A stretch of DNA of 64,000 bases, taken from contig CAJTNG010000001.1 in the NCBI GenBank assembly GCA_910577745.1, forward strand, positions 224,346 through 288,345, written 5' to 3'. Made by a program: the position numbers and the translations under genes. Numbering within the stretch: the stretch's first letter is position 1; every line of letters starts with the position of its first letter. Under the pieces are notes generated by a model. The model saw only the letters and a list, made by a program, of their open reading frames with translations, was not told the origin of the DNA and searched no databases. Positions 1,484-30,409 of the stretch are shown in pieces. Origin of the DNA: an uncultured Anaeroplasmataceae bacterium. Its GTDB lineage: Bacteria; Bacillota_I; Bacilli_A; Acholeplasmatales; Anaeroplasmataceae.

Positions 1484-1493
1484 TAGGAGGTTA

Positions 1494-4400
1494 ATGATGA
1501 AAAAGTTTAAATTTAGATATTTAGGAGTATTTGCTTTAAGTGCTTTAGCCTTAATAGGCTGTACAGATAATGCAGAAGAGTCTAAAGAAACCTATAATAC
1601 ATTTTATGTTACGCCAACAGGAGATGTAACATCTGATGGACTTTCTAAAGATGCACCTACTGAATTTTCAGTAGCAATTCGTAATGCAAAGCCAGGAGAT
1701 ACAATTTTGCTAGATGGCGGAACCTATAAATATAATTCTAGATTACAAATTGAAAATAGTGGTGCAGCAAATAAATATATTACAATCAAGCCTGAAACAG
1801 CTGAGGATCGGGTAATCTTTGATTTCTCCCAAATGTTTTTCAATAGTGCAAATCGTGGTATACAGGTATATGGTAGTTATTGGCATTTTTTAGATATTGA
1901 AATTTGTGGTGCTGGTGATAACGGTATGTATATTGCTGGAAATTACAATATTATAGAAAATTGTCAATTCTATAATAATCGTGATACAGGATTACAGATT
2001 GGTCGTGGATATTCCCATCAGAATACAATTGATACATGGCCTTCTTACAATTTGATTAAAAATTGTACATCTTTTGCAAATTACGATGATGAAACTAAAG
2101 GTGAAAATGCAGATGGATTTGCTGCTAAATTAACTGTAGGATATGGTAATGTATTTGATGGATGTATTGCCTTTAGAAATAGTGATGATGGTTGGGATTT
2201 ATTTGCGAAAGAAGATTCAGGAAATATAGGAACCGTTGTATTATACAACTGTGTTTCTTTTGAAAATGGTTTTCTTCCTTATCAGATAGAACGTTCTAAT
2301 GTAGATGGTTCAACTTATATGTCTTATAACACACAGGATGGTGATGGTATTGGATTTAAATTAGGTGGTTCTACTATGGAAGGGGATGTTCTATTAGAAA
2401 ACTGCTTAGCTTTTAATAATAAATTACATGGTGTAGGAGATAACTCTAATCCAGGTGAAATTCACATCAGCAATAGTACAGCTGTAAATAACTGTATCGG
2501 CTTGGAAGAGAATGGGGATGTATCTGGCATACGTGGAATTACGGGAGAACAAAACAAGTCCAATAATTTTGATTTAGCAAGAGATACAAAGAGTTATAAT
2601 TCTTACTATGGATTAGTTTCTTATATCAATAATCAAACAGGATATGATATCTCTTCTGGAGATAGTTCTTATAATGAAGATCATTTTAGAGGAAGTGCTG
2701 CATATAGTATTTTCCAAACAGGATATAATGGTTCAGAAATCTATAGAGCATTCACAGCTTATGAGGATGCTTCATCTTATCATTCTAGTACTACAGATGT
2801 TGCTTTCTCTAATGGAACAGAATATAAAGGCTTATCTGATGATAGCTTTGCTAGTTTAGAACCTCTAAATGCTAAGTGTGAAGATGCACAACATGTAGTT
2901 GATCTAACAAGTTATCACAAAACCTTAAGAAATGAAGATTATTCAGTCAATATGGGAAATACATGCAAAATAGTGGATGAAAAACTATTGAAATTTGCGA
3001 ATGGAAATCCAATTGGAGCTAATCTTTCTAAATCTAGTATGCAAGATTATAAGCATTATGATTTGTTAGATTTTAGTGCAGCGAAAACGGAAGATGAAGT
3101 TTCAGTGCAAGCTGCTTATAATGCTTTAGAGGTACTATGTGCAGAAGCTGCTGTATATCAAGATTTTGAAGTATCAAAGTTAATTCAAGGCTGTGATATA
3201 CGTTGGTCTTCTTCAGATACAGCTGTATTAGAAGTAGAAAATGAAGAAAAAGTATCCGTTTCTAAAAGTGTTTTTAGTACAGTTAGAGTTCATTCTCCAG
3301 CACAGGAAAAGCAAGTAACTTTAACTGCAACGATAACTAAAGGAAATGTTGAAAAGATTAAGACCTTTAATTTAACAGTAAAAACCAGAAGTCAAAGCTT
3401 AGGCCAAATGGTTTCTACAGGTCTTGCTGTAAACAGAGTAGAACTTTATCAAAAGTTTATTACTCCACGAATTTATCCTTTAGATGCATCTTCTTGTACG
3501 AATACGGAATTACCTTTAAGTTTATACGATATGAAATATACTTATCGTTATGCGACAGATGGAAACTCAAAATTTAATGAAATTGATAATGTTTATACTT
3601 CTGTTGCAGGGGTATACGAGGTTACTGCAACTGCATCGTTAAAATCTAATCCTGATATTTCAACCTCTTATACTTATACAGTTTATGTGGTTGATCCAAA
3701 TTGTGAAGTGGATTTTATGGATTCTATTTCCTCTGTAACGTTGAATAAAGATGGCTTTAGTGTTAGTGGTAGTCTGTCCAATATAGATGGTGCCATTTAT
3801 GCAGTAGTATCTAATGAAGAATTGAATTTAACGAGAGAAGAGTTATTAGCTCATCCAAATGTTCAAAAAGTTGAGATTGACTCAAATTATATTACTGCAA
3901 ACTTCTTGGCTGATAATAATGCTAGTCAGGTTTATTATGGATATTATTTGGTATCTAATAGAAATAAGAGTAATGTCAATGCCAAAGTCTATTCTTTCCA
4001 TACAGATATCATTACAATTGATACAAAAGAAGAGTTTAAAAATTTAGCAAGTACGGGTAAAAAAGGTACAGAAACTGCTACCTCAACAACGATATATAGT
4101 TTATCAAATGATTTAGATTTTACTGATTTTGAATGGGAAATTCCAACTAAGGCTCAGGCTAAAGCCTTTACAGGTTTATTTAATGGAAATGGACATACCA
4201 TTAGCAATATTAAGGTTATTGGTGCATCAGCTGATAAAACGGTAAATATATTCTTTAAATTATCAAACGCAACTTTAATGAATATCCATTTTGATCATAT
4301 AACGATTGAAAATAAAGATTATACTAGTGGTAAACAAGTGGGGATTATTGGAGAATTCCAAGGCGGATACTTACATAATATTCATATGACAAATGTTTCT

Positions 4401-5171
4401 GTTAAAGGCAATGAAGGTGTAGGAGCATTAGTCGGTCAAGTCACAGGTGGTGTGAATTATATTTCACAATGTTCTTTAGTAAATCCTGTGACAGAACAGG
4501 CTGTGGATAATCCTTATGTGATCGCTTCAGCAAAGAAATATGCTGGTGGTATTGTAGGTAATGGTCAAAAGAATAGTGATCAGTCTGTATTTAAACTCAT
4601 TGTTACAGATTGTATGGTAAATGCAATTATCGGTGACGGAAATGATTCAGGTGGTAACACAGGTGGTATTATTGGTCGTGTTAAAAATGATAGCAATGTT
4701 TACTACACGCAAGTTGAAAATTGTTACTTCAAAGGGATTGTCGTTGGCAAAGGAAACTATAATGCAGGTATCGTTGGTGATTTTGATGGTGGTTTAGGAC
4801 ATGTTGTGATTAACTGCAACTATTCAGATGTATCTTTTGTATTTGCAGGAGTGTATTTGAATGCAAAAGAATTACATGAACAAGGAACAACGCAACTTTA
4901 TGCACATAAAAATACGAACCCTATTGTTGGTCGTGCTGTATGGGCAGAAGGAGGAATCTACGAAACTCGTAGTAATGTTGGAACCTTCGTAGAGTATTAT
5001 TCAAATTATATTCAATCTTTCTCTATTGAATTTGAATTGGCACAATTAAATGAAGAAACCTATAAGTATGAATGGACTTTAACAGAGTTATTCTTATCAA
5101 GGGATTTAGGATTTGATTTAGAGAATATTTGGGTATTTGATGAAGCAACCCAAGATTTAAAATTAAGGTAA
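1494..5171 (+). CDS. lipoprotein polysaccharide lyase: right-handed beta-helix (PL9-like pectate lyase) with C-terminal GLUG-motif region
   Basis: Track ORF 1464..5171 trimmed to ATG 1494 (AGGAGG at 1485-1490). Lipobox LSALALIGC. Beta-helix/pectate-lyase-like motifs FYVTPTGD...DGGTYKY and NADGFAAK...FRNSDDGWDLF. C-terminal FTGLFNGNGHTISN and repeated GG(I/L)(I/V)G motifs. Confidence 0.6.
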   Translation: MMKKFKFRYLGVFALSALALIGCTDNAEESKETYNTFYVTPTGDVTSDGLSKDAPTEFSVAIRNAKPGDTILLDGGTYKYNSRLQIENSGAANKYITIKPETAEDRVIFDFSQMFFNSANRGIQVYGSYWHFLDIEICGAGDNGMYIAGNYNIIENCQFYNNRDTGLQIGRGYSHQNTIDTWPSYNLIKNCTSFANYDDETKGENADGFAAKLTVGYGNVFDGCIAFRNSDDGWDLFAKEDSGNIGTVVLYNCVSFENGFLPYQIERSNVDGSTYMSYNTQDGDGIGFKLGGSTMEGDVLLENCLAFNNKLHGVGDNSNPGEIHISNSTAVNNCIGLEENGDVSGIRGITGEQNKSNNFDLARDTKSYNSYYGLVSYINNQTGYDISSGDSSYNEDHFRGSAAYSIFQTGYNGSEIYRAFTAYEDASSYHSSTTDVAFSNGTEYKGLSDDSFASLEPLNAKCEDAQHVVDLTSYHKTLRNEDYSVNMGNTCKIVDEKLLKFANGNPIGANLSKSSMQDYKHYDLLDFSAAKTEDEVSVQAAYNALEVLCAEAAVYQDFEVSKLIQGCDIRWSSSDTAVLEVENEEKVSVSKSVFSTVRVHSPAQEKQVTLTATITKGNVEKIKTFNLTVKTRSQSLGQMVSTGLAVNRVELYQKFITPRIYPLDASSCTNTELPLSLYDMKYTYRYATDGNSKFNEIDNVYTSVAGVYEVTATASLKSNPDISTSYTYTVYVVDPNCEVDFMDSISSVTLNKDGFSVSGSLSNIDGAIYAVVSNEELNLTREELLAHPNVQKVEIDSNYITANFLADNNASQVYYGYYLVSNRNKSNVNAKVYSFHTDIITIDTKEEFKNLASTGKKGTETATSTTIYSLSNDLDFTDFEWEIPTKAQAKAFTGLFNGNGHTISNIKVIGASADKTVNIFFKLSNATLMNIHFDHITIENKDYTSGKQVGIIGEFQGGYLHNIHMTNVSVKGNEGVGALVGQVTGGVNYISQCSLVNPVTEQAVDNPYVIASAKKYAGGIVGNGQKNSDQSVFKLIVTDCMVNAIIGDGNDSGGNTGGIIGRVKNDSNVYYTQVENCYFKGIVVGKGNYNAGIVGDFDGGLGHVVINCNYSDVSFVFAGVYLNAKELHEQGTTQLYAHKNTNPIVGRAVWAEGGIYETRSNVGTFVEYYSNYIQSFSIEFELAQLNEETYKYEWTLTELFLSRDLGFDLENIWVFDEATQDLKLR

Positions 5172-5278: not shown

Positions 5279-5324
5279 GTTATCGTGAAAAAACGTTTTC
5301 ATGTATCAAAGAAGAAGGAGAAAA

Positions 5325-8300
5325 ATGAATATGAAAAAAAGCAAATTACTCATTGGACTCTGTGCATTAACAGCAGTGATAGGGCTAGCTGCATGTGACA
5401 ACAGTGAAGAACCACCAGCAGGTGATGATCCAATTGTAGAAGCAACAGAGTACACAGTAACCTTTAATTCACAGGAAGGTAGTGCAGTAAGTGCACAAAA
5501 AGTAAAAGAAGGAGAGAAGGTAAAAGAACCAACGGCTCCAACAAGAGAAGGATATACCTTTAAGGGATGGTATAAGGAAGCATCCTGTACCAACGCATGG
5601 AACTTTGGAAGTGACACAGTAAGTGGAGCAGTAACCTTGTATGCGAAATGGGAAAAGAAACCAGAAGAGCAAAAAGAAACATTTAACGTTTACTTCCATT
5701 TAACTGCAACAGATGAACCAGAACCAGTTACAGTGGAGAAGGATGATGTTGTGGCTGAACCAACGGCTCCAACAAAGCCATATAGTACCTTTGTAGGTTG
5801 GTTTACAAGTGCTACTGAACAGAATGAGAATACAGCATTCAGTTTTAGTACACCTATTACCCAAGAAACTCATTTATATGCAGGTTGGACAGTTGAAAAA
5901 GAAACTGTAACTTATACATTTGATGCTGCAACACTTACACCTCAAGTTTTAAGTGAAGATTTAACTGTAGGCAAGTTTACAATTGGTGCAGGTAATGAAA
6001 TCAGAACAGAAAGTGGTAAGAAGTATGCTGGTACATCTTATGCAATGGGTGTAAAAATCAACAACTCAGGTCAAACTTTCACTGTACATTCTGCAGGAGA
6101 AGGAAAACTTGTATTATTTGTTATTGATAGAGGTAGCTTATCTGCAATTTCAATAAAGCAACCTGATGGAACAACTGTAAATCAAGAGATATCTTTTGAA
6201 AACGTTCCTGCAGATACTAAGCAAATGCAAAGAATAGAAATCGATGTTCAAGAAGGAGATTATGTTTTATCTCAAGGAACTGGTACACCAGATATTGCAT
6301 ATGCAACTTTAACTTGTCAAGTTGAAAAATCTGCTCCTAAAGCTATTAAATTAAGTGGAGCTCAAACAAAATTCTTACAAGGAAGAGAATTTGATGCTTC
6401 TACATTAAATGTTGAACTACTTTATGAAAATGGTAGATTGGATATGTTAGATAAAGCAACATATACAGTTGATTCCACTGCATTTAATAAAGCAGTAGCA
6501 GGATCCTATACAATTCAAGTAACTTTTGGTGAATTGACTGAAACATATGTTGTTTATGTTTATGGTATTGAAAGTATTCAATTATATGATTTTTCATTAG
6601 ATAGTAAGAGAAATACTTTACCTTTACAGAAGGTATTCTTAAAGGATTCTCAATTCAATAGTAATAATTTAGCAGTACATGCTACTGGTAAGACGCCAAA
6701 TGTAGAAGGTACTGAAGATTTCATTTTAACTGCTGAAGAAATTGAAGTTGTTGCTCCATTATTAACAGCTGTTGGACAACAAACCATTACAGTAAAAGAA
6801 AAGTTATCAGGAGCAGAAAAGAGTGCTTCATATTCTGTAGTCGTTGTTACAAATGTATTTGATGCTAGTGCAACATCTTATAAAGTGACAGTGGATACAA
6901 CCGCTGATGCACCAGTTGTAGAAAATGGTTTAGTTGTCTTTAAGACAATTAATGATGCACTTATGTATTTAGAATTGGTTCAAGCAAAACCAAGCGCAAT
7001 TAAAACGATAGAGGTAGCTGTAGGTACTTATTTTGAAAAAGTTACCGTAAATATGCCTAATGTTCATATGGTTGGTATAGATGAAGATGCTAGCAGAACG
7101 GTTCTAGAATTTAATGCATTAAATGGATTAACAGACCCAAGTGGAACTATTACATATTCAACAAATGGTTCAGCATCAATTACAATTACAGAAACTGCAA
7201 CAGGATTTACGGCTCAAAATATAACATTTAAAAATTATTATAATACAAATGCTTTATATGAAGAATCTAAATTAATTGCGGGTTCTGGAACTCAAGCCGT
7301 TGCTGCATTAGTTCAAGCTGATCAATCTGTATTTAAAAACGTTCGTTTCACATCTTACCATGACACTCTATATGCTCAGGTAGGACGTCAATACTATGAA
7401 AACTGCTATATTGAAGGTAGAACAGATTATATTTTTGGCTACAATGCAACTGCATTCTTTGAAAATTGTAATATTCATACTTTAGGAGCTGGAGTAGAAG
7501 AGAAGAATGGCGGATATGTCATTGCTACTAAAGGTTCAAATAAGGCTGCTGCAACAGATGCTATAAAATATGGATATATCTTCAATAATTGTACATTTGA
7601 TGCAGATGATCAAACACAGGATGGTTCAGTTTCTATCGCTCGTGGCTGGGATGTATCAATGGCTACTATGATTATGAATTCTTCCATTTCTAAAGCTTTT
7701 TCAAAGACAGCTTATGTTGAAAACAATTCTGGACTAAATAATCGTTATGGAAAAATGAATGCTGCCCCAGTAGCTGCTCAACTTTTAGAGTATAACAATA
7801 CAGGGGATGGAGCAATCACAGAATCTTTAGAAAATACATGTACATACACTACAGAAGCTGTAGCTTTAGAATATGCGGATTTAAATACTGTCTTTGGTGC
7901 AGTTAACAACAAGCTTACTTGGAATTCTGCTTGGAATCCAGTGCAAGTTAAGGATGCAACAATTGTATTGAAGAAAGCAGATGGTACTACACTTCAAACA
8001 TTAGAAAATGTTGGATATGTTGGTGCAACAATTACAGAAGTTGAATTAAGAGAATTAGTTGAAATTCCTTCAGGAATGAATTTAGATGGATTCTTTACAA
8101 ACGCTGAATGCACAACTGCTTATAATTTTGCTACAAAATTAACAGAATCTAATGAGATCTATGTTAAATTATCTTCATCTTCTGTATTAAGTGCAACGAC
8201 TATTAAATTCAGTGGACTTGCAGCTACAATAGATAGTGAAGTTAAAGTCGATGCATTGGGTATTGTAACTTTAGTTGGTTCAGCAACATCAAAGATTACA

Positions 8301-8657
8301 GTAGATGGCTCTGGTAAAGAAATTTTAGATGCAGAAGGAAATGCATACACACCTGAACAAAGAGTTAAAACAGGGGGACAGTCTAAAGCAGATGGTCGTT
8401 ACATTAAAATAGATTTATCTAAATATTCTGGTCAAGCAAAGATTCAAATCTATTCTCAAACAGGTAGTGGTGCTGCTGATAGAACTGGTCAATTGAGAAA
8501 AGATGCCTTTGATGGAGCAAGTGTGCTTGTAATTAATTGTCCTGCAGGAAGTGCAGCAACTTTAAATGAAGTTGTTATTGAATGTGGACATATTTACTAT
8601 ATTACTGCAGATGCAAGTATCAATTTCTTTGGTATTAATATCATTCCAGTTGTATAA
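5325..8657 (+). CDS. multidomain lipoprotein pectinesterase (CE8) with Listeria-Bacteroides repeats and Big_3-like domains
   Basis: Track ORF 5301..8657 trimmed to ATG 5325 (AAGGAG at 5315-5320; ATG 5331 also possible). Lipobox LTAVIGLAAC. Two Flg_new-type repeats (YTVTFNSQEGS...GYTFKGWY...LYAKW and FNVYFH...FVGWF...LYAGW). CE8 core motifs GTQAVAALV, YHDTLYA, GRTDYIFG, ARGW. Confidence 0.75.
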   Translation: MNMKKSKLLIGLCALTAVIGLAACDNSEEPPAGDDPIVEATEYTVTFNSQEGSAVSAQKVKEGEKVKEPTAPTREGYTFKGWYKEASCTNAWNFGSDTVSGAVTLYAKWEKKPEEQKETFNVYFHLTATDEPEPVTVEKDDVVAEPTAPTKPYSTFVGWFTSATEQNENTAFSFSTPITQETHLYAGWTVEKETVTYTFDAATLTPQVLSEDLTVGKFTIGAGNEIRTESGKKYAGTSYAMGVKINNSGQTFTVHSAGEGKLVLFVIDRGSLSAISIKQPDGTTVNQEISFENVPADTKQMQRIEIDVQEGDYVLSQGTGTPDIAYATLTCQVEKSAPKAIKLSGAQTKFLQGREFDASTLNVELLYENGRLDMLDKATYTVDSTAFNKAVAGSYTIQVTFGELTETYVVYVYGIESIQLYDFSLDSKRNTLPLQKVFLKDSQFNSNNLAVHATGKTPNVEGTEDFILTAEEIEVVAPLLTAVGQQTITVKEKLSGAEKSASYSVVVVTNVFDASATSYKVTVDTTADAPVVENGLVVFKTINDALMYLELVQAKPSAIKTIEVAVGTYFEKVTVNMPNVHMVGIDEDASRTVLEFNALNGLTDPSGTITYSTNGSASITITETATGFTAQNITFKNYYNTNALYEESKLIAGSGTQAVAALVQADQSVFKNVRFTSYHDTLYAQVGRQYYENCYIEGRTDYIFGYNATAFFENCNIHTLGAGVEEKNGGYVIATKGSNKAAATDAIKYGYIFNNCTFDADDQTQDGSVSIARGWDVSMATMIMNSSISKAFSKTAYVENNSGLNNRYGKMNAAPVAAQLLEYNNTGDGAITESLENTCTYTTEAVALEYADLNTVFGAVNNKLTWNSAWNPVQVKDATIVLKKADGTTLQTLENVGYVGATITEVELRELVEIPSGMNLDGFFTNAECTTAYNFATKLTESNEIYVKLSSSSVLSATTIKFSGLAATIDSEVKVDALGIVTLVGSATSKITVDGSGKEILDAEGNAYTPEQRVKTGGQSKADGRYIKIDLSKYSGQAKIQIYSQTGSGAADRTGQLRKDAFDGASVLVINCPAGSAATLNEVVIECGHIYYITADASINFFGINIIPVV

Positions 8658-14148: not shown

Positions 14149-14664
14149 ATGGATACAAAAGCCATTACGATTGGTAGTTTGCCAATACTTATTGAAGTAT
14201 CAAAATTATACCATGAGCACAAAACGGCTGAGGAAATTGTAGCTTGGGCAGAAACAGAAGTGAATAAGTATGCCACTTATTTTTATGCCGATGATTTAAA
14301 GTTTTTTAGTAAGAGTGGCAGAATCAGTAACTTCTCAGCAATTATGGGTACGATATTAGGTATTCATCCCATTATACATATGGACGCTAAAGGAATGCTT
14401 AAGGCTTTAACAAAAGCTCGTGGAAGAGTGGGAAGCTTGAAGAAGATTATAGATTTTATGGCAGAATTAGAAGAGGACATTGCATCTTATCCTATCATTA
14501 TAGGTCATACAGATGCTTTAGAGTTGGCAAAGAAATTTGGTGATATGATAAGAGCTAAGTTTGGGGGAAACTTAAACATTCAATATGTGGTTGTAAATCC
14601 AACGGCAGGTGCTCACTGTGGGCCTGATTCTATTGGTGTTTGTTTTCATGTGAAACATCGATAA
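14149..14664 (+). pseudogene. 5'-truncated DegV/FakB-family fatty-acid-binding protein (C-terminal about 170 aa only)
   Basis: Matches only the C-terminal two-thirds of DegV (FYADDLKFFSKSGRIS, ILGIHPIIHMD, RGRVGSLKK, GAHCGPDSIGVCFH). About 110 N-terminal residues are absent. The ORF begins 22 nt after the cwlD terminator, with no evident promoter or RBS. Confidence 0.6.
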
Positions 14665-14866: not shown

Positions 14867-15568
14867 ATGGAATTTGTATCTTTTCAAAATGTTACAAAAA
14901 AATATAGTACTGGAAGTCAAGAAATCATTGCAAATCATAAGGTAAGCTTTGAAATAAAAGAGAAAGAGTTTTGTGTAATTGTAGGACCTTCTGGAGCTGG
15001 AAAGACGACAATTTTAAACCTTCTTGGTGGTATGGAAAGTAATGATGAGGGGACTATATTTGTAGATGGTCTTGAAGTCAGTAAAATGAACGACCGAGAA
15101 CTGACAATGTATCGAAGATATGATGTGGGTTTTGTTTTTCAGTTTTATAATCTTATGCCCAATTTAACGGCTTTAGAAAATATTGAAATTGCTGCAGAGA
15201 TATGTAAAGCGCCATTAGATCCGAAAGAGGTTTTATGTTCTGTAGGGCTAGAAGAACGATTCAATAACTTTCCTGCTCAACTATCTGGTGGAGAACAGCA
15301 ACGTGTCAGTATAGCAAGAGCAATTGCCAAAAATCCTAAAATCCTATTATGTGATGAACCTACAGGAGCGCTAGATTATTTGACAGGGAAAAGTATTTTG
15401 AAGCTTCTTCATGATACCTGCCGAAATTCTTCTAAAACGGTGATTGTCATTACACATAATGCAGCTTTGACCAAAATGGCTGATCATGTAATTCGTGTGA
15501 AAAATGGAGAAGTTGTAGAGGAATATTATAATGATCATCCACTACCAATTGAAGAGATTGAGTGGTGA
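14867..15568 (+). CDS. ABC transporter ATP-binding protein (MacB/FtsE/LolD type)
   Basis: Walker [10 protein letters not shown], signature [14 protein letters not shown], Walker [12 protein letters not shown]. Start at ATG 14867 behind GGAGGTGG. Confidence 0.85.
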
Positions 15569-15572
15569 TTTT

Positions 15573-18056
15573 ATGAACAAGACCTTTATAAAAACTATTT
15601 TTCGTGATTTTAAAAGAAACTTTTCTAGATTAATCTCCATTATAGCAATTATGGCATTAGGCTCAGGCTTTTTGATTGGGCTTTTATCCTCTACTCCTGT
15701 TTTGCAACATTCTATGGATCGGTTTTATCATCAGCAGGATATGTATGATATATTGTTAAAAAGTACATTGGGATTTACGCAGGAAGAGGTTGACCAGCTT
15801 TCTAAAGATGTACAGGATGCAGAAAAAGTAGAAGGGTTTTCGTCCTTAGATAATGAAATCAATTTTGCGGGACAAAGCATAACGGTTCGTACGACGATAT
15901 CCAATTTAAAAGATGGAATAAATCAGGTAGAATTGATAGCTGGAGAATATCCTAAAACCAAGCATGAATGCTTAATTCAGAACCTTGGATATTTTTTTGA
16001 AAAAGACTGTATTGGCAAAACGATAGAGGTTGGAGAGGATACCTATACCATTGTAGGTATCTGTAATTCTCCTGTCTATTCTTATAAAATGCAGGAACCT
16101 AGCACTGTGGGAAAAGGGACTGTAGATGCATTTCTATATATAGATTCTGCCTTCACAGAGTATATCATTACAGATGTTGCTTTTCTTTTGAAAGATTCTA
16201 AAAAGTACAATTCTTTTGATAAAAGCTATTTTTCGTATATAGAACCTTATAAAGAAAAATTAAAAGGATTAGAAAACTCATATTTAGAGTTTCGTCTTAA
16301 AAATTTAAAAGAAAATGCTTTTGATGAGGCTTTAGAAGAGGCAAGACAACAACTTTTACTGCAATTTCCTAATTTACCAATAGAAAGTATTGAAACAATC
16401 TTAAATTCACAAAAGGATAAAATCTTTGAAGAAGTAGAAAAACAGTTGGCAGATATAAAATTGAAATGGTATATTTTAGACCGAAAAAGTAATATGAGTT
16501 ATGTCTCCTATGAGGAAAATTCCAATAAAGTGAATCGTGTTGCTGTAATATTCCCATTCTTTTTCTTCTTTATTGCCGCTTTAATCTCCTTAACTTCGGT
16601 TACTAGGCTGGTTTATGAGGATCGGGCTTCCATTGGTACACTAAAATCTTTTGGATATTCCAAACGAAAAATATTAAGTAAATATTTAATTTATGCAATT
16701 TTTGCCTGTGGGATTGGGACTTTAGGAGGACTGTTTTTAGGTGTATATGGTCTTCCGTATGTCATTTATATTTGTTATAATTCTTTATTTGTTATGCCTG
16801 CTTGTAAACTATCTTGGCATATTGAGTATGTATTACTTGCCTCTATTACGATGAGTATTACTATATTCTGTGTTATGATTGCAGTTTGTCTTAAAGCTTT
16901 AAATGAAAAGCCAAATGCGCTTTTAATGCCTAAGGCACCCAAAGCAGGAAAACGAATTTTGTTGGAACGCATAGGATTTATTTGGAAGAAATTAAAGTTT
17001 AAGTATAAATCCTCGATTCGAAATGTTTTTCGTTTCAAGAGAAATTTAATGATGATGATTGTAGGTGTTGGGGGATGTACAGGTCTAATGCTTATTGGTC
17101 TTGGGTTAAACGATTCTATAAATGCATTAGGAAATGAACAATATCAGAACATTTTAAAATATGACTTTATGCTAACTGTGAATCAAGAGGTTGAAATGGA
17201 GTATTTAAAGGATAGTTCATGGATGTATCTCTATCAAGAAGAAGCCAGTTTAAATCAAGACAGTAGATATGAAATCAAATTGCTTTATACAGAGGATAAA
17301 ATTATAGATTTCATGAATTTAGGAATTGATGGCTTTATGGAAGATTCGGTCGTAATTTCAAGTCAGCTTGCCCATGACTTCCATCTTCGCAAAAATGATA
17401 CGATAGAACTTTTGGTTGAAGGGGAAGTAAAGCAATTTAAAATTACAAATATTTTTACGAATTATGTGAGCAATTATGTAATTGTCCACCAAAGTTTAAT
17501 AAAAGAACCTGTGAATCGCTTGCTTTTAAAATTAGGAGAACAAGACAAGGCGAATTATGAGGAAACCATCCGTCATATCTTTGCGACAGAAGAGTTTCTC
17601 ACCATAGAAGATTTATCACAAACAAGAACGATTTATGCTTCCATGACCGATAGTATAGGACTTGTTGTTTTGTTGATTATTTTCTTCTCAGGACTTCTAG
17701 CGATTGTGGTAATCTATAATCTAACAAATATTAATATAAATGAAAGAATTAAAGAGATTGCAACTTTAAGAGTTTTAGGGTATCATAGAAAAGAGGTTTT
17801 AGGATATATATACCGAGAAATCATAATCATGAGTGTTTTGGGTATTGTATTTGGATTTCTATTAGGGCCTATCTTAAATTACTTTGTAATGCGACAGATT
17901 TCTAGTCCAGGTCTTCGTTTTAATGCAAATTTAAGTGGGTTATATTATTTATATTCTTTCCTTATCACTTTAGGTTTTGTGATAATCGTATTATTGCTTT
18001 TTATCCCTAAAATAAAAAAAATAAAGATGGTGGAGTCTTTAAAATCTGTAGAGTAA
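15573..18056 (+). CDS. ABC transporter permease with two FtsX domains (MacB/YbbP-like, about 828 aa)
   Basis: TM1, a large extracytoplasmic domain and 3 TM helices, all duplicated. ATG 15573 lies 4 nt after the ATPase stop. Confidence 0.7.
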   Translation: MNKTFIKTIFRDFKRNFSRLISIIAIMALGSGFLIGLLSSTPVLQHSMDRFYHQQDMYDILLKSTLGFTQEEVDQLSKDVQDAEKVEGFSSLDNEINFAGQSITVRTTISNLKDGINQVELIAGEYPKTKHECLIQNLGYFFEKDCIGKTIEVGEDTYTIVGICNSPVYSYKMQEPSTVGKGTVDAFLYIDSAFTEYIITDVAFLLKDSKKYNSFDKSYFSYIEPYKEKLKGLENSYLEFRLKNLKENAFDEALEEARQQLLLQFPNLPIESIETILNSQKDKIFEEVEKQLADIKLKWYILDRKSNMSYVSYEENSNKVNRVAVIFPFFFFFIAALISLTSVTRLVYEDRASIGTLKSFGYSKRKILSKYLIYAIFACGIGTLGGLFLGVYGLPYVIYICYNSLFVMPACKLSWHIEYVLLASITMSITIFCVMIAVCLKALNEKPNALLMPKAPKAGKRILLERIGFIWKKLKFKYKSSIRNVFRFKRNLMMMIVGVGGCTGLMLIGLGLNDSINALGNEQYQNILKYDFMLTVNQEVEMEYLKDSSWMYLYQEEASLNQDSRYEIKLLYTEDKIIDFMNLGIDGFMEDSVVISSQLAHDFHLRKNDTIELLVEGEVKQFKITNIFTNYVSNYVIVHQSLIKEPVNRLLLKLGEQDKANYEETIRHIFATEEFLTIEDLSQTRTIYASMTDSIGLVVLLIIFFSGLLAIVVIYNLTNININERIKEIATLRVLGYHRKEVLGYIYREIIIMSVLGIVFGFLLGPILNYFVMRQISSPGLRFNANLSGLYYLYSFLITLGFVIIVLLLFIPKIKKIKMVESLKSVE

Positions 18057-18075
18057 ACTTATGGAGTGTTGTAGT

Positions 18076-18987
18076 ATGAATGATGTTTTTATTTCTTATA
18101 AAGTTCATAACAGAAGAACAGCAATTGAATACTACAAAAATTTAAAACTATTAAATTTTCAGGTTTGGTTTGACCAACTTGTACCTAAAATGGCAGATTG
18201 GAAAAAAACAATCAAGGACCAAATCAAAAAATCAAATATATTTATCTGTCTTTTAAGTAAAGAATGCTTGCTGGATGATTGGGTTTTATTTCAAATTCAA
18301 GTTGCTAGAAAAGCACATAAGAAAATATATTTTATTACATTAGATGATACAGACTGGACACAGAATAAGGCGTATAAAGTTCCAGAAAAGACTTATACAT
18401 CCTTAGAAGAAGTATGTCTAATGCTATTTGATGATAAATCAAAAATAAATTTAACCCATTCTTATCAAGGGATTAATAATTTTACAGTGAATTTCCTTAC
18501 TTTAGCCGTTTGTGCATTTCTTGTTTCCAGTTTTGGAATTCATCTGTTTAATTTAAAATTAGGATTAGAGTTTGGATTAATTATTTGGGGGATATTAACC
18601 TGTATCGTGTTAGCCTATATCCCTAAAAAGCTAACTTATATTCTTCAGGGAATTCTTTCGGTTGTGTTACTGTATTTGGCCATCTACATTTTCCCTACCT
18701 ATATTGTGTCAAATATCCCCATAAATACAGTTTTCTTTCTTTGGTTTTATCTGTTTGGGATATCCCTTAGATTTTTAAAATATTCGTTGTGGAAGTCATG
18801 GTTAATTGCTTTATTTTATGCAAGTTTTAGTGTGACAGTATATTCCTCATTGCTCGTCTTATTTTCTTACTTTTGGGATTATGATTGTTCATGGGTGAGT
18901 TTTATCATTTTAATTTCCTATTTTCTTTATACGCTGTTTCATCATGCGAAAGAAATTTTGTTTAAAAAGAGGTCTTATCAGGATTAG
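18076..18987 (+). CDS. TIR-like domain protein fused to a six-helix transmembrane domain
   Basis: N-terminal DVFISY...QVWFDQ...DWKKTIKDQIKKSNIFICLLSKECLLDDWVLFQ follows the TIR_2 pattern. About 6 hydrophobic helices fill the C-terminal 170 aa. ATG 18076 with GGAG 7 nt upstream, 20 nt after the permease stop. Confidence 0.6.
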   Translation: MNDVFISYKVHNRRTAIEYYKNLKLLNFQVWFDQLVPKMADWKKTIKDQIKKSNIFICLLSKECLLDDWVLFQIQVARKAHKKIYFITLDDTDWTQNKAYKVPEKTYTSLEEVCLMLFDDKSKINLTHSYQGINNFTVNFLTLAVCAFLVSSFGIHLFNLKLGLEFGLIIWGILTCIVLAYIPKKLTYILQGILSVVLLYLAIYIFPTYIVSNIPINTVFFLWFYLFGISLRFLKYSLWKSWLIALFYASFSVTVYSSLLVLFSYFWDYDCSWVSFIILISYFLYTLFHHAKEILFKKRSYQD

Positions 18988-20293
18988 GTAAAACTTTTTT
19001 TCGGAAATATAACATAAACCCATATATTGTTATACTAGTTATAACTTCAGAAATTGTAATGGCTAAATATATTCCACTTTCTTCCATACAAAGGCTTAAA
19101 CCATATGCTAGAGGTAATAATAAAATTAATTGTCTTAACAGGCTTACGATTAAAGAAAGTAAGCCTTTTTGTATGGATTGAAAATAGGAAGCCATGATAT
19201 AATTGATACAGCCAAAACTAAAACCAATAGAGGCTAATCTTAAGAACATGTTCGTCGTTTGTATTAAATTTTGATCTTCATAGAACATTTGCATCAAAAG
19301 ATTAGGCATGCTCATAAAAATGATAGTTGCAAGAATACCGATTCCGATGGATAAAAATAAGGATTGCTTTAAAATCAGATTTAAGCGTTTTTCATTTTTG
19401 GCTCCATAATTGTAACTCATCAGAGGCATCGTTCCTTGAGCAATTCCGCTTACTCCCATATACACAAAATACTGCAATTTGTAGAATAAGCCAAATGTTG
19501 TAACAGCAAAAGAATTTATAGTGATTAAAATATAATTCATGAAAGTGACCATAAAAGATGGAATGGCATTCATAAAGAAGGATGGAATACCAACCTTATA
19601 GATTAACTGAATGTTATCTTTATTAAAGGAGAACCCTTTTAGGTGAATTCGAATCCGATTCTTTTTAGATAGAATAAATGCTAGCATTACGATGGTAGAA
19701 CAGACTTGGGCAATCACCGTTGCTAGGGCTGCCCCAAGTATTCCCATATCAAATGTGAAGATTAAAAGTGGGTCTAGTATTACATTGATGATCACTCCAG
19801 TAACAAGGGAAAACATCGGAAGTGCCATTTTTCCATCTGCTTGTAATATTTTTTCCATTGCAATTTGAAAGATTGTAGTGAAACTAAAAATTATGATTAA
19901 ATTGATATACGTTAATCCATATTGAATAACTTTATCTTCTGTAGTAAAGGTTTGAATGAAAATTTTAGATAAAGCTAATCCAATAACTAATACTCCAAGA
20001 TAATGAAATATGGAGAGAATCAGTCCAGAGGTTGCTGCATTCTCTGCTTCCGTATGCTTGTTTTGACCAAGCTTCATTGCAATACATGCATTCATTCCTA
20101 CACCTATACCAACAGATAAGGCTAAAATTAAATTTTGTATTGGGTACACAATAGATATTGCCTCCATTGCTTTAGGATCATAATTGGTAACATACATTGA
20201 ATCTATTAAATTATATAAAGATTGAATGATCATAGATAAAGCGGGTGGCAGACTCATTTTTATGATTAAAGCAAGTGTCTTTTTCTTTTCCAT
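18962..20293 (-). CDS. MATE-family efflux transporter
   Basis: 12-TM protein with a typical MATE N-terminus (LPPALSMIIQSLYNLIDSMYV). Start moved to the Met of MEKKK (GGAGAGG RBS upstream). The 3' end overlaps the TIR-TM gene by 26 nt. Confidence 0.75.
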   Translation of the reverse strand: MEKKKTLALIIKMSLPPALSMIIQSLYNLIDSMYVTNYDPKAMEAISIVYPIQNLILALSVGIGVGMNACIAMKLGQNKHTEAENAATSGLILSIFHYLGVLVIGLALSKIFIQTFTTEDKVIQYGLTYINLIIIFSFTTIFQIAMEKILQADGKMALPMFSLVTGVIINVILDPLLIFTFDMGILGAALATVIAQVCSTIVMLAFILSKKNRIRIHLKGFSFNKDNIQLIYKVGIPSFFMNAIPSFMVTFMNYILITINSFAVTTFGLFYKLQYFVYMGVSGIAQGTMPLMSYNYGAKNEKRLNLILKQSLFLSIGIGILATIIFMSMPNLLMQMFYEDQNLIQTTNMFLRLASIGFSFGCINYIMASYFQSIQKGLLSLIVSLLRQLILLLPLAYGLSLCMEESGIYLAITISEVITSITIYGFMLYFRKKVLPNPDKTSF

Positions 20294-20311
20294 AGTATCC
20301 TCTCCATTCAT

Positions 20312-20366
20312 AAAAAAATAGCCTCATATTTGTTTGTTAACTCCGAAACAAAAAAATACGAGGCTA
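20312..20366 (-). terminator. intrinsic-terminator-like hairpin in the MATE 5' leader (possible attenuator)
   Basis: On the minus strand, TAGCCTCGTATTTTTTTGTT pairs with AACAAACAAATATGAGGCTA (about 18 of 20 bp), followed by TTTTTTT. It lies only about 20 nt upstream of the MATE RBS. Confidence 0.5.
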
Positions 20367-20493
20367 ATAGCACTTGCATTGTATCATAGTTTTTATGGAA
20401 AGTCTATGACAAATTTTTTTTATTCATGAAAAAGAATTTTATTTTAAATCAATTTGGTATATAATAATGAAATAGAGAAAAGAGGTAATAAAT

Positions 20494-21627
20494 ATGAAAA
20501 TTGACATTATTTCAGGATTTTTAGGCGCAGGAAAAACTACATTTATAAAAAGACTTTTAAATACGAGGATGAAAGAAGAAAAGGTTGTTCTTATTGAAAA
20601 TGAATTTGGTGAAATCTCTGTAGATTCAGACTTTTTAGCAGATACAAGGATTGATATTAAGGAGTTATCTCAAGGCTGTATCTGTTGTAGCTTATTTGGA
20701 GATTTTTCTAAATCTTTACAGGAAGTCATTGAAAAGTATCAGCCTGATCGTATTTTAATCGAACCATCAGGAGTAGGAAAATTATCAGATATTATTCAAG
20801 CTGTCAAAGATGCAGGATTAGAAAAGAATTTAAATGCTTTAGTTTGTCTTGTAGATGTCAATAAAGCTAAAATGTATTCTAAGAATTTTGGTGAATTCTT
20901 TTTAGACCAAATTAAAACCGCACATACGATTATTTTATCTCGTACGGACGTTGCTAAAGAAGATAAAGTAATTGAAACGTTAGAAGTAATAAGAGAAAAT
21001 AATGACAAGGCAGTTTTAGTAACTACGCCTATTCAAGATTTGAAAGATGGTGAGATATTTAAAGCCTATGAGGGATTACATGATGATTTTAAAAAAGAAC
21101 TTTTACAAGATGTACACCATGAGCATGAAGAAGAGTGTTGCGGACACCACCATCATCATGAACATGAAGAAGAATGCTGTGGACACCACCATCATCATGA
21201 ACATGAAGAAGAGTGCTGTGGACACCACCATCACCACGAGCATGAAGAAGAGTGCTGTGGACACCACCATCACCACGAGCATGAAGAAGAATGCTGTGGA
21301 CACCACCATCATCATGAATATGAAGGAGAGTGTTGTGGGCATCACCACCACCATCATGCAGAAGAAGTGTTTTCTTCTGTAGGTTTTGAGACAGTCAAGA
21401 AATATAATTTAGAATTTTTGAAAAAAGTTTTAGAGAACCTGTCTAATGGGGTTTGTGGTATTGTCGTAAGGGCTAAAGGTGTTATTTCAGATGATACGAA
21501 TCAATGGTATCAGTTTAATTTAACTCCTGGTGAAGTAACTTTAGAGAAATGCAATCCACGTCCAATTGGTAAAATCTGTGTGATTGGTTCAAAGATTGAT
21601 GAAGCAGTTATTAAAAAATTATTTTAG
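20494..21627 (+). CDS. COG0523/CobW-family G3E GTPase metallochaperone with His/Cys-rich insert
   Basis: Walker A GFLGAGKTT, CXCC motif GCICCS, IEPSGVG, SRTD. An internal 81-aa HEHEEECCGHHHH repeat tract. Confidence 0.8.
   Translation: MKIDIISGFLGAGKTTFIKRLLNTRMKEEKVVLIENEFGEISVDSDFLADTRIDIKELSQGCICCSLFGDFSKSLQEVIEKYQPDRILIEPSGVGKLSDIIQAVKDAGLEKNLNALVCLVDVNKAKMYSKNFGEFFLDQIKTAHTIILSRTDVAKEDKVIETLEVIRENNDKAVLVTTPIQDLKDGEIFKAYEGLHDDFKKELLQDVHHEHEEECCGHHHHHEHEEECCGHHHHHEHEEECCGHHHHHEHEEECCGHHHHHEHEEECCGHHHHHEYEGECCGHHHHHHAEEVFSSVGFETVKKYNLEFLKKVLENLSNGVCGIVVRAKGVISDDTNQWYQFNLTPGEVTLEKCNPRPIGKICVIGSKIDEAVIKKLF
21115..21357 (+). repeat. in-frame tandem repeat, about 6 x 39 nt, encoding (HEHEEECCGHHHH)n
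   Basis: Six near-identical 39-nt units that differ mostly at synonymous positions. The last unit is degenerate (HEYEGECCGHHHHHH). Confidence 0.9.
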
Positions 21628-21637
21628 AGGATAGTCT

Positions 21638-22558
21638 ATGGTTGAGGTACCTATATTTATTGTAAATGGTTTACTGGAAAGTGGTAAAACCACACTAATC
21701 AAAGAAATTATAGAGAATAATGTTTCTTATCAAGCAGGAACTACACTTTTGGTGGTTTGTGAAGAAGGAGAAACAGAATATGAAGAGCGTTGGCTCAAAG
21801 AGTATGAAGTTCAAATCGCTTATGTTTCAAAAGAAGCTGATTTGACACCAGAGTTTTTGATGGCTTTAGATGAACAATATCAGCCTGTTCAAATTGTTTT
21901 AGAATATAATAGTTTTTATAATATGGATGAATTAGCCTTTCCAGAGTATATGCCAGTCTATCAGCAAGTTACACTCATTGATGCGTCCACATTTGGCATA
22001 TTCTTTAATAATATGAAACAAATCTTTAATAATCTTGTAAAATTTTCTTCTTTGGTTATTTTTAATCGTTGTGATGGAATAAAAGATTTATCTTTATATC
22101 GTAGACAAATTAGAGCTTTAAACCAAGAATGCCAAATTGGTTTTGAGGGAAAAAATGGGCAACTAACCTCTATGTTAGATGAAGATCTTCCATACGATAT
22201 TACAAAAGATAGCATTCTACTAGAGGATGAAGATTATCCTACTTGGTATATTGATGTGTTTGACAACTATGAAAAATATCAAGGAAAGACCATACGATTT
22301 AAAACTTTCGTTAGAGATATTTTAGAAGACTCTATAGTCGTAGGAAGAAATGTTATGACATGTTGTGAAAATGATATTCAGTTTTTAGGATATGAGGTTC
22401 AAAATGTAGATCTGCTTTTAGGAATTGGAGATTGCATTTTCTTAGAATGTATGGTTAAACGTGAGTATTCTAAAATTGCAGAAGAGGAAGTCGTAATGCT
22501 AGATGCCAAAAAGGTGTCTAAACTTCCAAAGGAAGAGGATAAGGTTCTATCCTTATAA
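21638..22558 (+). CDS. COG0523-like GTPase paralogue lacking CXCC, with a DUF1980/TIGR03943-like C-terminal domain
   Basis: Walker A GLLESGKTT, IVLEYNS, FNRCD, but VVCEEGE where CXCC is expected. C-terminus YQGKTIRFKTFV...VGRNVMTCCENDIQFLGY. Confidence 0.55.
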   Translation: MVEVPIFIVNGLLESGKTTLIKEIIENNVSYQAGTTLLVVCEEGETEYEERWLKEYEVQIAYVSKEADLTPEFLMALDEQYQPVQIVLEYNSFYNMDELAFPEYMPVYQQVTLIDASTFGIFFNNMKQIFNNLVKFSSLVIFNRCDGIKDLSLYRRQIRALNQECQIGFEGKNGQLTSMLDEDLPYDITKDSILLEDEDYPTWYIDVFDNYEKYQGKTIRFKTFVRDILEDSIVVGRNVMTCCENDIQFLGYEVQNVDLLLGIGDCIFLECMVKREYSKIAEEEVVMLDAKKVSKLPKEEDKVLSL

Positions 22559-28279: not shown

Positions 28280-30409
28280 ATGTTAGATGATTTAAATACG
28301 GCGCAAAGAGAAGCGGTCACCTCTATAGATGGACCAGTTATGGTAATGGCTGGTGCAGGGTCTGGGAAAACTAAGGTGTTGACAGAACGTATAGCTTATA
28401 TAATCGAGCAGGGAATCTCTCCTTATCAGATTCTTGCAGTCACATTTACCAATAAAGCCGCAAGGGAAATGAAAGATAGAGTAGAAGAGCTTGTAAATAT
28501 GGATACGAAATTTATGTGGATTTCCACATTTCATAGTTTCTGTTCCAGATTTTTACGATTGGAAATTGAAGAAGGATTACCTGCATATAATCGTAATTTC
28601 TTAATTATCGATGAAGATGATGCTGTAAAAATAGTTAAAGAAATTTTGAAAAATTTTGCATTGGATGAATTTAAACCAAAAAAGATTTATGATTTGATTT
28701 CAAAAACGAAAAATTTTCCAAACTATCAAATACGGGACTCTTATTTAAAAAATACTTTTCCATCTATCTTTACCCGATATAATGCCTATTTAGTAGAAAA
28801 TAATATGCTGGATTTTGATGATCTTATCATCAAGACCATAGAGCTCTTACAAAAAAATCCTTTAATTTTAGAGAAATATCAGGAGAAATTTCAATATATT
28901 TTAGTTGATGAATTTCAGGATACCAATGATTTGCAGTATAAGTTGATGTTTATGCTTTCTGCAAGATTTCATAATATATTTGTGGTTGGTGATGATTTTC
29001 AGTCTATCTATTCTTTTAGAGGCGCTAAAATTGAAAATATAAAAAAATTTCAAAACGATTTTAGAGAACATAAATTAATTTTACTAGAAGAAAATTATCG
29101 TTCTACGACACAGATTTTGAATCTAGCAAATGTGGTTATTGAACACAATCCGAATCAAATCAAGAAAGTGATGTTTTCTAATAAAAAAGAAGGGCAGGTT
29201 CCATTTTATTACCAGGCAATGAGTGGAAAAAGTGAAGCTATGTATGTGGTAGACAAAATCAAAGAGTTTCACTTGCAAAAGGATAAGTATAGTGATTTTG
29301 CCATCATTTATCGGACCAATTATATTTCAAGAGTTTTTGAAGACACCTTGATAAAATTTCAAATTCCATATAAAATCTATGGAGGATTGTCTTTCTTCTC
29401 TAGAAAAGAAATCAAAGATTTGATTGCTTACTTGCGGATTATTATTCATCCAGAAGATGATTTCTCCTTTTCCAGAATTGTAAATGAGCCAAAAAGAAAA
29501 ATAGGAACATCTATTTTAGAGAAACTGCACCTACACGCTAAGGAACAGGAGTGCTCTTTATATGATGCTATTCCAACTTTTCAAGCAAGCGGAGTAGGAT
29601 ATACTGCTTTAAAGGCTTTTCATCAAATGATTTTCTCTATTAAAGAACAGTTAAACAATATGCCATTAAAAAATGTGGTAGATGTCATCATAGAAGAATC
29701 TGGGTATAAGGCTATGCTTGCGGTAGAAGATCCAGAACATGAACGTTTAGGAAATATTTTTGAGTTTAAGAACGTTTTAAAGGAGACAGATGTAACCGTT
29801 GAGGGAGATAATTTTGATAAATTAAATCAACTTCTAAATGATTTATCCTTAAGAACAGATAATGAAAATGATAGTGATGTAGATGCAGTTGTGCTTACCA
29901 CATATCACCAAGCAAAAGGTTTGGAATTTAAAAATGTTTTCTTGGTGGCTATGGAAGAAGGTATATTTCCCAGTGAGTATCACATAGAAGATTTGGATAT
30001 AGAAGAAGAACGTAGAATCTGCTATGTTGGAGTCACTAGAGCAAAGGATAGACTATACATTACAAATGCGCAAAATAGAATGCTTTATGGAAGAATGGAA
30101 ACCTCCAATCCTTCTAGGTTTATAAAAGAGATGGGCAAAGAACATTTGAAAAATGTAAGTGCAGATTTTTATGAAATATCTTATAAAAAGTTTCAAAGCT
30201 TAAAAGAAGAACTACCTAAAGTTGTACAAAAAACAGATGAACAATATCATGTGGGAGATAAAGTAGAACATAATGTATTTGGAATTGGTGTAATTGTAAC
30301 AGTCGGTAATGATACTTCTATAAAGGTTGCGTTTCCACTTCCGGCTGGTATTAAAACATTGATTAAAAATCATCCCTCTTATCATATTTTAACAAAAGCT
30401 TCTAAATAA
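28280..30409 (+). CDS. pcrA: ATP-dependent DNA helicase PcrA (UvrD family)
   Basis: LNTAQREAV, AGAGSGKTKVLTERIAY, VDEFQDTN, TYHQAKGLEF, VGVTRAKDRLY. The C-terminal Tudor-like tail is present. Confidence 0.85.
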   Translation: MLDDLNTAQREAVTSIDGPVMVMAGAGSGKTKVLTERIAYIIEQGISPYQILAVTFTNKAAREMKDRVEELVNMDTKFMWISTFHSFCSRFLRLEIEEGLPAYNRNFLIIDEDDAVKIVKEILKNFALDEFKPKKIYDLISKTKNFPNYQIRDSYLKNTFPSIFTRYNAYLVENNMLDFDDLIIKTIELLQKNPLILEKYQEKFQYILVDEFQDTNDLQYKLMFMLSARFHNIFVVGDDFQSIYSFRGAKIENIKKFQNDFREHKLILLEENYRSTTQILNLANVVIEHNPNQIKKVMFSNKKEGQVPFYYQAMSGKSEAMYVVDKIKEFHLQKDKYSDFAIIYRTNYISRVFEDTLIKFQIPYKIYGGLSFFSRKEIKDLIAYLRIIIHPEDDFSFSRIVNEPKRKIGTSILEKLHLHAKEQECSLYDAIPTFQASGVGYTALKAFHQMIFSIKEQLNNMPLKNVVDVIIEESGYKAMLAVEDPEHERLGNIFEFKNVLKETDVTVEGDNFDKLNQLLNDLSLRTDNENDSDVDAVVLTTYHQAKGLEFKNVFLVAMEEGIFPSEYHIEDLDIEEERRICYVGVTRAKDRLYITNAQNRMLYGRMETSNPSRFIKEMGKEHLKNVSADFYEISYKKFQSLKEELPKVVQKTDEQYHVGDKVEHNVFGIGVIVTVGNDTSIKVAFPLPAGIKTLIKNHPSYHILTKASK

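Follow-up and report, generated by a model that had tools for sequence, protein, structure and literature searches.

Characterised bacterial TIR domains mostly cleave NAD+ by way of a conserved glutamate, killing the cell or making immune signals. What, then, is the role of a TIR domain that carries a glutamine at this position, that is joined to six transmembrane (TM) helices, and whose gene is found within a conserved row of housekeeping genes? The question is raised by the gene, here called TIR::6TM, at 18076-18987 of a 64,000-nucleotide stretch of DNA (the window) from an uncultured Anaeroplasmataceae bacterium (contig CAJTNG010000001.1, positions 224,346 to 288,345). An initial annotation, made from the letters of this DNA, had recognised the domains of the encoded protein and had framed it in terms of anti-phage defence and abortive infection. 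We analysed the protein, its family and its genomic surroundings, and found that the glutamine is invariant throughout a small family that appears uncharacterised so far. The reading that we favour, with a likelihood that we put just short of even, is that of a membrane-tethered, non-hydrolytic TIR module that serves the binding of a nucleotide-like ligand, self-association, or both.

Domain architecture of the TIR::6TM protein

The gene and the main parts of its product are the following (coordinates in the window, strand, description):

18076..18987 (+): TIR::6TM coding sequence, complete, 303 aa plus stop; full-length homologues begin at the equivalent Met; ratio of nonsynonymous to synonymous substitution rates (dN/dS) 0.08-0.23
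18064..18067 (+): ribosome binding site GGAG, 8 nt before the ATG and inside the 19-nt gap 3' of the FtsX permease stop (read from the sequence)
18085..18357 (+): TIR core, residues 4-94, with strands A-D and helices A-C (Pfam TIR_2, AlphaFold2, Foldseek)
18358..18474 (+): linker from the TIR core to TM1 (residues 95-133), with a variable length and sequence
18475..18960 (+): six-helix membrane domain, residues 134-295, family-specific (hydropathy, AlphaFold2, positive-inside counts)

Position 18076 was taken as the start because all homologues begin at the equivalent methionine, their N-terminus MNDIFISY being common to the whole family alignment, and because the GGAG lies 8 nt 5' of it. An alternative in-frame ATG at 18061, which would add 5 residues, is matched by no homologue and was rejected.

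Both its profile and its fold place the protein in the TIR_2 superfamily. Residues 4-94 match the Pfam domain TIR_2 (PF13676) at 47.6 bits (E=2.9e-12), where the gathering score is 28, and the same annotation is carried by all homologues. The related profiles score lower: PF01582 (TIR) stays just under its Pfam threshold, PF08937 (ThsB_TIR) reaches 15.3 bits and is thus below its cut-off of 21.2, and the ThsB models of PADLOC gave weak matches only (best E=1.1e-5, 22.8 bits). The scan of the protein against NCBIfam yielded no meaningful match. An AlphaFold2 (AF2) model of the full-length protein, built on the 36-sequence family alignment, has a mean predicted local distance difference test score (pLDDT) of 87, and its best Foldseek matches in the PDB were all TIR domains, namely those of SPARTA TIR-APAZ, SARM1, AbTir and RPP1 (probability 1.00, E down to 1.7e-4). 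The motifs that mark the fold have been kept: FISY in strand A, W-F-D in strand B, and LLS plus a Trp in strand C/helix C. The nearest TIR domain outside the family was sought with a TIR-only profile (A3), for which the word-seeded searches recovered only a 107-aa fragment of the family itself (P0043), and no outgroup is named.

The gene product is an integral membrane protein, composed of a cytoplasmic N-terminal TIR domain, a linker and a six-helix bundle. Hydropathy and the AF2 model agree on helices at approximately residues 134-153, 165-180, 185-205, 216-233, 238-267 and 274-295, and the membrane domain modelled alone reached a pLDDT of 91 and a predicted TM-score of 0.84. Averaged over the 36 members, the number of Lys plus Arg residues is 1.7, 2.2 and 3.6 in the inner loops and C-tail, and 0.7, 0.06 and 0.03 in the outer loops, and outer loop 5 has an acidic character. 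Both termini, and with them the TIR domain, are accordingly placed on the cytoplasmic side (N-in/C-in). The conserved parts of the membrane half are its loops (FNLxL..YG, LSYIxxK, PPYYISxISIN, RYSK and FDxDxSW), and those exposed on the outer face (FNLxL..YG, PPYYISxISIN and FDxDxSW) are short.

This membrane domain seems to be private to the family. Residues 125-303 gave no match in Pfam or NCBIfam, and Foldseek found no significant relative of the domain in either the PDB (best E=1.5) or BFVD (best E=1.4). A profile of the domain, when run against 1.84 billion cluster representatives, recovered 15 proteins: 13 with the TIR+6TM architecture and 2 that are truncated (132 and 268 aa). As only members of the family were found, the membrane domain occurs neither alone nor with another partner. 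The architecture as a whole thus appears uncharacterised, in line with the initial annotation, to which no characterised family of this make-up was known.

The linker shows gaps and insertions in the family alignment (A1), and residues 121-130 are modelled with a pLDDT of 51. The 419-aa protein of locus L024 (L024 343-1602) carries a long acidic low-complexity insertion of ~125 residues between the TIR domain and TM1, and member P0018 (L014 8001-9035) has ~50 extra linker residues. Length differences of up to ~125 residues are easier to reconcile with a tether than with a rigid gate. The rigid coupling of the TIR domain to TM1 that would follow from the continuous helix 110-153 of the AF2 model was discounted, given the low pLDDT of that stretch and the insertions of 50-125 residues in P0018 and L024.

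The residue at the catalytic position

The segment that corresponds to the WxxxE motif of catalytic TIR domains is:

18280..18294 (+): W-V-L-F-Q (Trp69-Gln73), counterpart of WxxxE by profile alignment; Gln73 invariant, Trp69 nearly invariant

Trp69 is encoded by TGG at 18280-18282 and Gln73 by CAA at 18292-18294. In the alignment of the family profile with PDB sequences, the segment 'ddWvlkQ' falls on 'SDWCWDE' of Cat1, 'RDGVLKE' of SPARTA TIR-APAZ and 'KDWTNYE' of AbTir. The AbTir glutamate that is aligned in this way is, by residue counting, E208 of the WxxxE motif, the conserved residue that underlies the NADase activity of most bacterial TIR domains (PMC11374754). Gln73 is invariant in the aligned members (36/36), was also read by eye in P0039, P0040, P0041 and the 419-aa L024 protein, and lies inside the helix C that is predicted by AF2 (H69-79). 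On the basis of the profile alignments and of its place in this predicted helix, Gln73 would therefore be the equivalent of the catalytic glutamate. A canonical glutamate supplied from elsewhere, the circumstance in which the initial annotation would have had to be revised, was not seen in the sequence alignments (coordinates were not superposed).

The NADase activity of AbTir also requires S140, R151, D167 and W204 (PMC11374754). According to the family-profile alignment, S140 corresponds to S7 and D167 to D33, both of which are invariant, and W204 corresponds to the nearly invariant W69, whereas R151 falls on Glu18. The 36-sequence alignment further contains the invariant residues K9, V10, R13 and Q34, of which K9 and R13 adjoin strand A. 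As far as can be judged from these alignments, the pocket looks largely maintained and the catalytic carboxylate specifically replaced, and the domain would lack the very glutamate that defines the NAD+-cleaving TIR domains of the SARM1/AbTir/ThsB/Cat1 type. The depth to which Gln73 is conserved points to a selected state and not to recent decay. All three elements that had been read from the letters of this gene, i.e. a TIR_2-like domain, about six hydrophobic helices and a Gln in the column of the catalytic Glu, are thus borne out, the first by a solid profile score above threshold and by its fold, the second by hydropathy and AF2, and the third by the alignment with Cat1, SPARTA TIR-APAZ and AbTir and by its invariance within the family.

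Distribution of the family and selection

The 38 clusters that were recovered from 5.8 billion proteins cover, in nearly all cases, ~90-100% of the query and have lengths of 286-347 aa, the three shorter ones being truncated or partial. The named cluster records all read 'TIR-domain protein' and stem nearly all from metagenome-assembled genomes (MAGs) of Anaeroplasmataceae, with 1 MAG that is labelled Roseburia sp. When one genome per GTDB species was scanned, 13 loci were recovered, all in MAGs of Anaeroplasmataceae or of 'uncultured Mollicutes'. With about 40 clusters the family is small, and it is lineage-restricted, having been found only in Anaeroplasmataceae-type gut bacteria.

The identity to the window protein is 42-69% for the TIR half and 18-36% for the membrane half. 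Between pairs of members with 59-83% amino-acid identity, dN/dS lies at 0.08-0.23, in both halves of the protein. The gene is therefore functional and under purifying selection on both domains, and there is no sign of gene-wide diversifying selection.

Genomic context

We examined the loci of homologues that range from 98% to 30% identity, together with loci that were retrieved via the downstream cobW2 gene. The neighbouring genes in the window are:

14867..15568 (+): LolD/FtsE/MacB-type ATPase of an ATP-binding cassette (ABC) transporter, 233 aa if begun at the ATG 14867 (NCBIfam); first gene of a probable operon
15531..18056 (+): duplicated FtsX-family permease, 841 aa (NCBIfam DevC/ADOP; Pfam FtsX/MacB_PCD at the homologous loci); 19 nt lie between its end and the TIR gene
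18962..20311 (-): MATE efflux gene (NCBIfam MATE); shares 26 nt with the 3' end of the TIR gene; lineage-variable insert and no member of the unit
20494..22558 (+): cobW1 (His/Cys-rich COG0523-type GTPase) and cobW2 (CobW N-domain::DUF1980_C) (synteny, family matches)

The genetic context of the TIR gene was found to be conserved on its downstream side in particular. Wherever downstream sequence is available, the gene is co-directional with, and located 5' of, the array cobW1-cobW2(DUF1980_C)-tsaE-tsaB-rimI-glnS; it overlaps cobW1 by 11 nt in L054 and L055 and lies 1 base apart from it in L012. On the upstream side the order ABC-FtsX-TIR is found in most lineages, with an ABC ATPase that is 78-88% identical, and the ABC-FtsX pair is not upstream in four loci (L012, L028, L054 and L055; members P0037, P0032, P0036 and L028's own). 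A scan of the interval between the FtsX permease and the TIR gene found no terminator-like site, and the two genes are probably co-transcribed. The promoter scan was uninformative (41 promoter-like sites versus 34 expected in AT-rich DNA).

The slot between the TIR gene and cobW1 (18962-20493 in the window; also seen in L004, L008, L011, L014, L028 and L053) holds an opposite-strand MATE gene, a GH3 gene, GH3 plus GH43, or nothing, and behaves as a local hotspot of gene gain and loss in an otherwise stable array. Besides the window, the L008/L025/L026 lineages carry the MATE insert; elsewhere its place is taken by GH3 or by nothing. Wherever GH3 is the next gene, it is overlapped by the TIR gene by 4-14 nt, and from these overlaps tight spacing seems to be a general trait of such compact co-directional genomes and not the mark of a specific functional link.

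A family of small membrane proteins of 137-141 aa ('VYYTSK...YQFLPLGIRFL', 44-55% identical) was encountered at L011 7282-7701, L028 5494-5907 and L051 8180-8605 (equal to L032 3242-3664). Its gene lies directly 5' of the TIR gene in two lineages, and in L032/L051 the 141-aa version takes the place of the TIR gene between FtsX and cobW1; no copy was found in the window by tblastn. Another candidate for this place, a 347-aa protein 5' of cobW1 in L033, was considered as a soluble TIR protein and rejected (sub-threshold TPR matches, hhalign probability 0.6%). More distant lineages are likewise without the TIR gene. Within its subclade the gene is vertically inherited at a fixed locus; it is dispensable at a larger scale and it is not mobile.

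Several further observations were made on the surroundings. The cobW1 gene (20494-21627, +) contains six tandem His/Cys-rich units (HHHHHEHEEECCG-like) at ~21070-21360, and since the protein measures 377 aa in the window, 389 aa in L001 and 413 aa in L051, the number of repeats seems to vary among relatives. A link with the zinc-regulated cobW by way of a Zur box was rejected: the Firmicute Zur box gave 3 matches at 3 mismatches versus 4.8 expected, none of them near the locus. The DegV-family gene at 14149-14664 (+) is a 5'-truncated remnant that corresponds to codons 119-289 of the intact 289-aa gene of L003, the first 355 nt being missing; in L001 the gene is split into two open reading frames (ORFs), and its decay seems to be under way in this group of strains. 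In the window as a whole, the + strand carries 58 of the 63 long ORFs, and the G+C content is 32%. The large ORFs at 1464-5171 (1235 aa) and 5301-8657 (1118 aa), which follow an ORF with a Big_3 Ig-like domain (23-1483), may encode surface proteins.

Search for a defence context

We then looked for the surroundings that would be expected of a defence gene. Neither the 50,697 phage records and 72,556 plasmids (tblastn) nor IMG/VR (scan) yielded a relative; the only matches were marginal TIR matches of 48 residues in Staphylococcus phages (E=8e-3). A second TIR gene is not present within the 64-kb window. PADLOC, when applied to the 63 window ORFs, returned neither a specific defence system nor a Thoeris model among the best 25 of 74 families; these consisted of generic mad3, AriA, GajB and DRT matches to ABC transporters, PcrA and a DUF1848 protein. 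The DRT (RTasDUF1848, RTasHel) and GajB models reached strong E-values on the DUF1848 protein and on the PcrA-like UvrD helicase at 28280-30409; these matches look generic, do not look like defence systems, and show how matches of this kind can mislead. A gene for a ThsA-type effector (SIR2-SLOG, Macro-TM or other) was not found next to the TIR gene, the neighbours in all loci being ABC/FtsX, MATE or GH3, and cobW.

The gene was thus found neither in islands nor on mobile elements nor in a pattern of patchy horizontal spread, the features by which defence genes stand out; the one sister lineage without it does represent some variation in presence and absence. The anti-phage and abortive-infection framing of the initial annotation finds no support in these results: the gene occupies a fixed slot among housekeeping genes, has no mobile relatives, is accompanied by generic PADLOC matches only, and matches ThsB weakly. 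The opposite outcome that had been envisaged, an invariant core gene with a housekeeping role, holds only by half: synteny and vertical inheritance agree with it, but L032/L051 are without the gene, and any housekeeping role would be hypothetical.

Possible function of the TIR::6TM protein

With its catalytic glutamate replaced by an invariant glutamine, the TIR domain would not hydrolyse NAD+. According to the reading that we favour, it would be held at the inner face of the membrane by the variable linker, which connects it to the private six-helix bundle. There, its pocket may bind a nucleotide-like ligand without hydrolysing it, or the TIR domains may self-associate, or both, and the protein would act as a scaffold or sensor and not as an NAD-depleting suicide effector. 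The possibility of a non-catalytic scaffold or sensor had already been raised in the initial annotation, and it gains from the invariance of the Gln and the retention of most other pocket residues. Further support is given by the genomic position of the gene, in a fixed co-directional array with cobW, cobW, tsaE, tsaB, rimI and glnS across lineages with 75-96% GlnRS identity. We infer a loss of NADase activity, a mode of action by ligand binding or assembly, and a role outside defence. The more specific proposal that the protein is a bacterial counterpart of receptor-type TIR signalling, with a chromosomally fixed, non-catalytic TIR domain that the private six-helix domain, whose conserved outer face is small, keeps at the membrane, and in which ligand binding or TIR-TIR assembly serves normal physiology and not NAD+-based immunity, we consider somewhat unlikely.

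Several points weigh against the favoured reading. The counterpart of AbTir R151 in the family is Glu18, so that the pocket is incompletely preserved. The equivalence of Gln73 with the catalytic glutamate is known from profile alignment and from its place in the predicted helix C, and an acidic residue could reach the catalytic site from elsewhere. That the change from Glu to Gln would abolish NADase activity is assumed by analogy with mutants of other TIR domains. A TIR domain combined with TM helices is a usual make-up of defence effectors, and TM segments are present in one TIR defence system of E. coli (PMC11350192). The TIR protein is only 30-50% identical in most other lineages, compared to 72-90% for its neighbours in the synteny tables, and to 69-84% for cobW and 75-96% for GlnRS over the loci examined, and conflict genes likewise diverge faster than their neighbours. 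Finally, the sister lineage L032/L051 (GlnRS 83%, FtsX 49%) keeps ABC-FtsX-cobW1-cobW2 without the TIR gene, which is therefore dispensable.

Some of these points would be explained as well if the protein were a single-gene abortive-infection effector, in which infection or a nucleotide signal would be sensed by the TIR domain, which oligomerises, upon which the six-helix domain breaches the membrane in place of an NADase activity. This possibility is kept alive by the divergence of the gene, which far outpaces that of its neighbours, and by its absence from a sister lineage of the same gene order, which makes it accessory at that scale; TM-spanning effectors and TIR domains are moreover both common in defence (10.64898/2025.12.03.692087; PMC11350192), and weak matches to the PADLOC ThsB models do exist. 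Nevertheless, we hold it to be unlikely. The gene is found in the same slot among housekeeping genes in every lineage examined, phages, plasmids and viral contigs yielded no relative of it, the window contains no second TIR gene and no specific defence match among the best PADLOC families, and the low dN/dS gives no indication of gene-wide diversifying selection. We know of no TIR domain that acts as the signal receptor of a TM effector. The active-site residues of the TIR domain were, in addition, needed in 12/12 validated E. coli TIR systems (PMC11350192), whereas the present family is without the glutamate.

The close association with particular neighbours could also mean that the protein is an accessory or regulatory membrane subunit, either of the upstream MacB/FtsX-type ABC exporter or of the downstream CobW metallochaperone pair, with the TIR domain as docking module. 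The exporter is suggested by the 19-nt gap after FtsX, the lack of a terminator-like site in it and the gene order of most lineages, and the CobW pair by its presence downstream wherever the flank was recovered and by the deepest-branching members, which overlap cobW1 by 11 nt or lie 1 base before it. Neither association is strict, however: ABC-FtsX is not upstream in L012, L028, L054 and L055, opposite-strand MATE or GH3 genes intervene before cobW1 in many lineages (the window included), and L032/L051 possess both the ABC-FtsX and the cobW pair without a TIR gene. As the overlaps with GH3 make tight spacing look general, and as no Zur-box-like site is found near the locus, we regard a dedicated subunit as decidedly unlikely; it would in any case be compatible with the membrane-tethered, non-hydrolytic module that we favour.

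Lastly, the TIR domain could still be an enzyme with a different chemistry or substrate, in which Gln73 takes part in hydrolysis of, or transfer on, another nucleotide. The invariant Gln73, S7, K9, R13, D33 and Q34 and the nearly invariant W69 look like a selected active or binding site, and TIR-fold proteins with other activities have been reported, e.g. a cADPR (cyclic ADP-ribose)-specific hydrolase (PMC13455253). Yet no precedent was found for Gln-dependent TIR catalysis, a literature phrase search on TIR domains without the Glu having matched only work on plant NLR (nucleotide-binding leucine-rich repeat) proteins, and ligand binding without turnover explains the invariance equally well. 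We give this possibility a slim chance.

What is new in these findings is, on the one hand, a lineage-restricted and uncharacterised form of a known domain family, which is coupled to a unique membrane partner and has its place in a housekeeping locus, and, on the other hand, a change from Glu to Gln that has been maintained over deep divergence under purifying selection while most other pocket residues were kept. If the domain is indeed non-catalytic, a scaffold- or sensor-type TIR function, which is otherwise tied to animal receptors, would exist in bacteria too; and if the receptor-type reading is true, the family would represent a bacterial TIR that lost its NADase chemistry and yet stayed under selection. 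The comparison of a Q73E variant with the wild type offers a simple test case for the role of a TIR pocket without hydrolysis. For automated defence annotation the family provides a caution, namely that a TIR domain and TM helices alone do not make a defence gene.

Comparison with known TIR and membrane-effector systems

The closest relatives by fold, AbTir, Cat1 and SPARTA TIR-APAZ, are TIR_2 domains with the same fold and motifs as the domain described here. The present family differs from them by the invariant Gln in place of the Glu and by the Glu in place of AbTir R151. In comparison with other TIR_2 domains, its TIR domain is short (~110 residues), and the last helix leads toward the membrane domain. 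The ThsB protein of Thoeris contains a TIR domain of similar size, and PADLOC ThsB and Pfam ThsB_TIR do match TIR::6TM weakly. Unlike ThsB, however, TIR::6TM is without the Glu that is needed for signals of the cADPR type and without an adjacent ThsA, and it is fused to six TM helices and encoded at a fixed housekeeping locus.

The joining of a cytoplasmic domain of the signalling or immune type to membrane helices is also seen in the TM effectors of CBASS and Pycsar and in the TM-bearing Thoeris effectors. Those are encoded in islands or operons together with a signal-producing enzyme, and their TIR domains depend on the active-site residues, whereas TIR::6TM is without the Glu and has neither a partner enzyme nor an island. 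The animal Toll-like and interleukin-1 receptors combine a membrane anchor with a cytosolic TIR domain in an analogous manner, and their TIR domains are thought to act by assembly and not by catalysis (PMC7075850). There is no homology between these receptors and TIR::6TM beyond the TIR fold: in the receptors a large ectodomain precedes one TM helix, whereas in TIR::6TM the TIR domain is N-terminal and the six helices that come after it are connected on the outside by short loops only. The two are analogous, and TIR::6TM is not a member of the receptor class.

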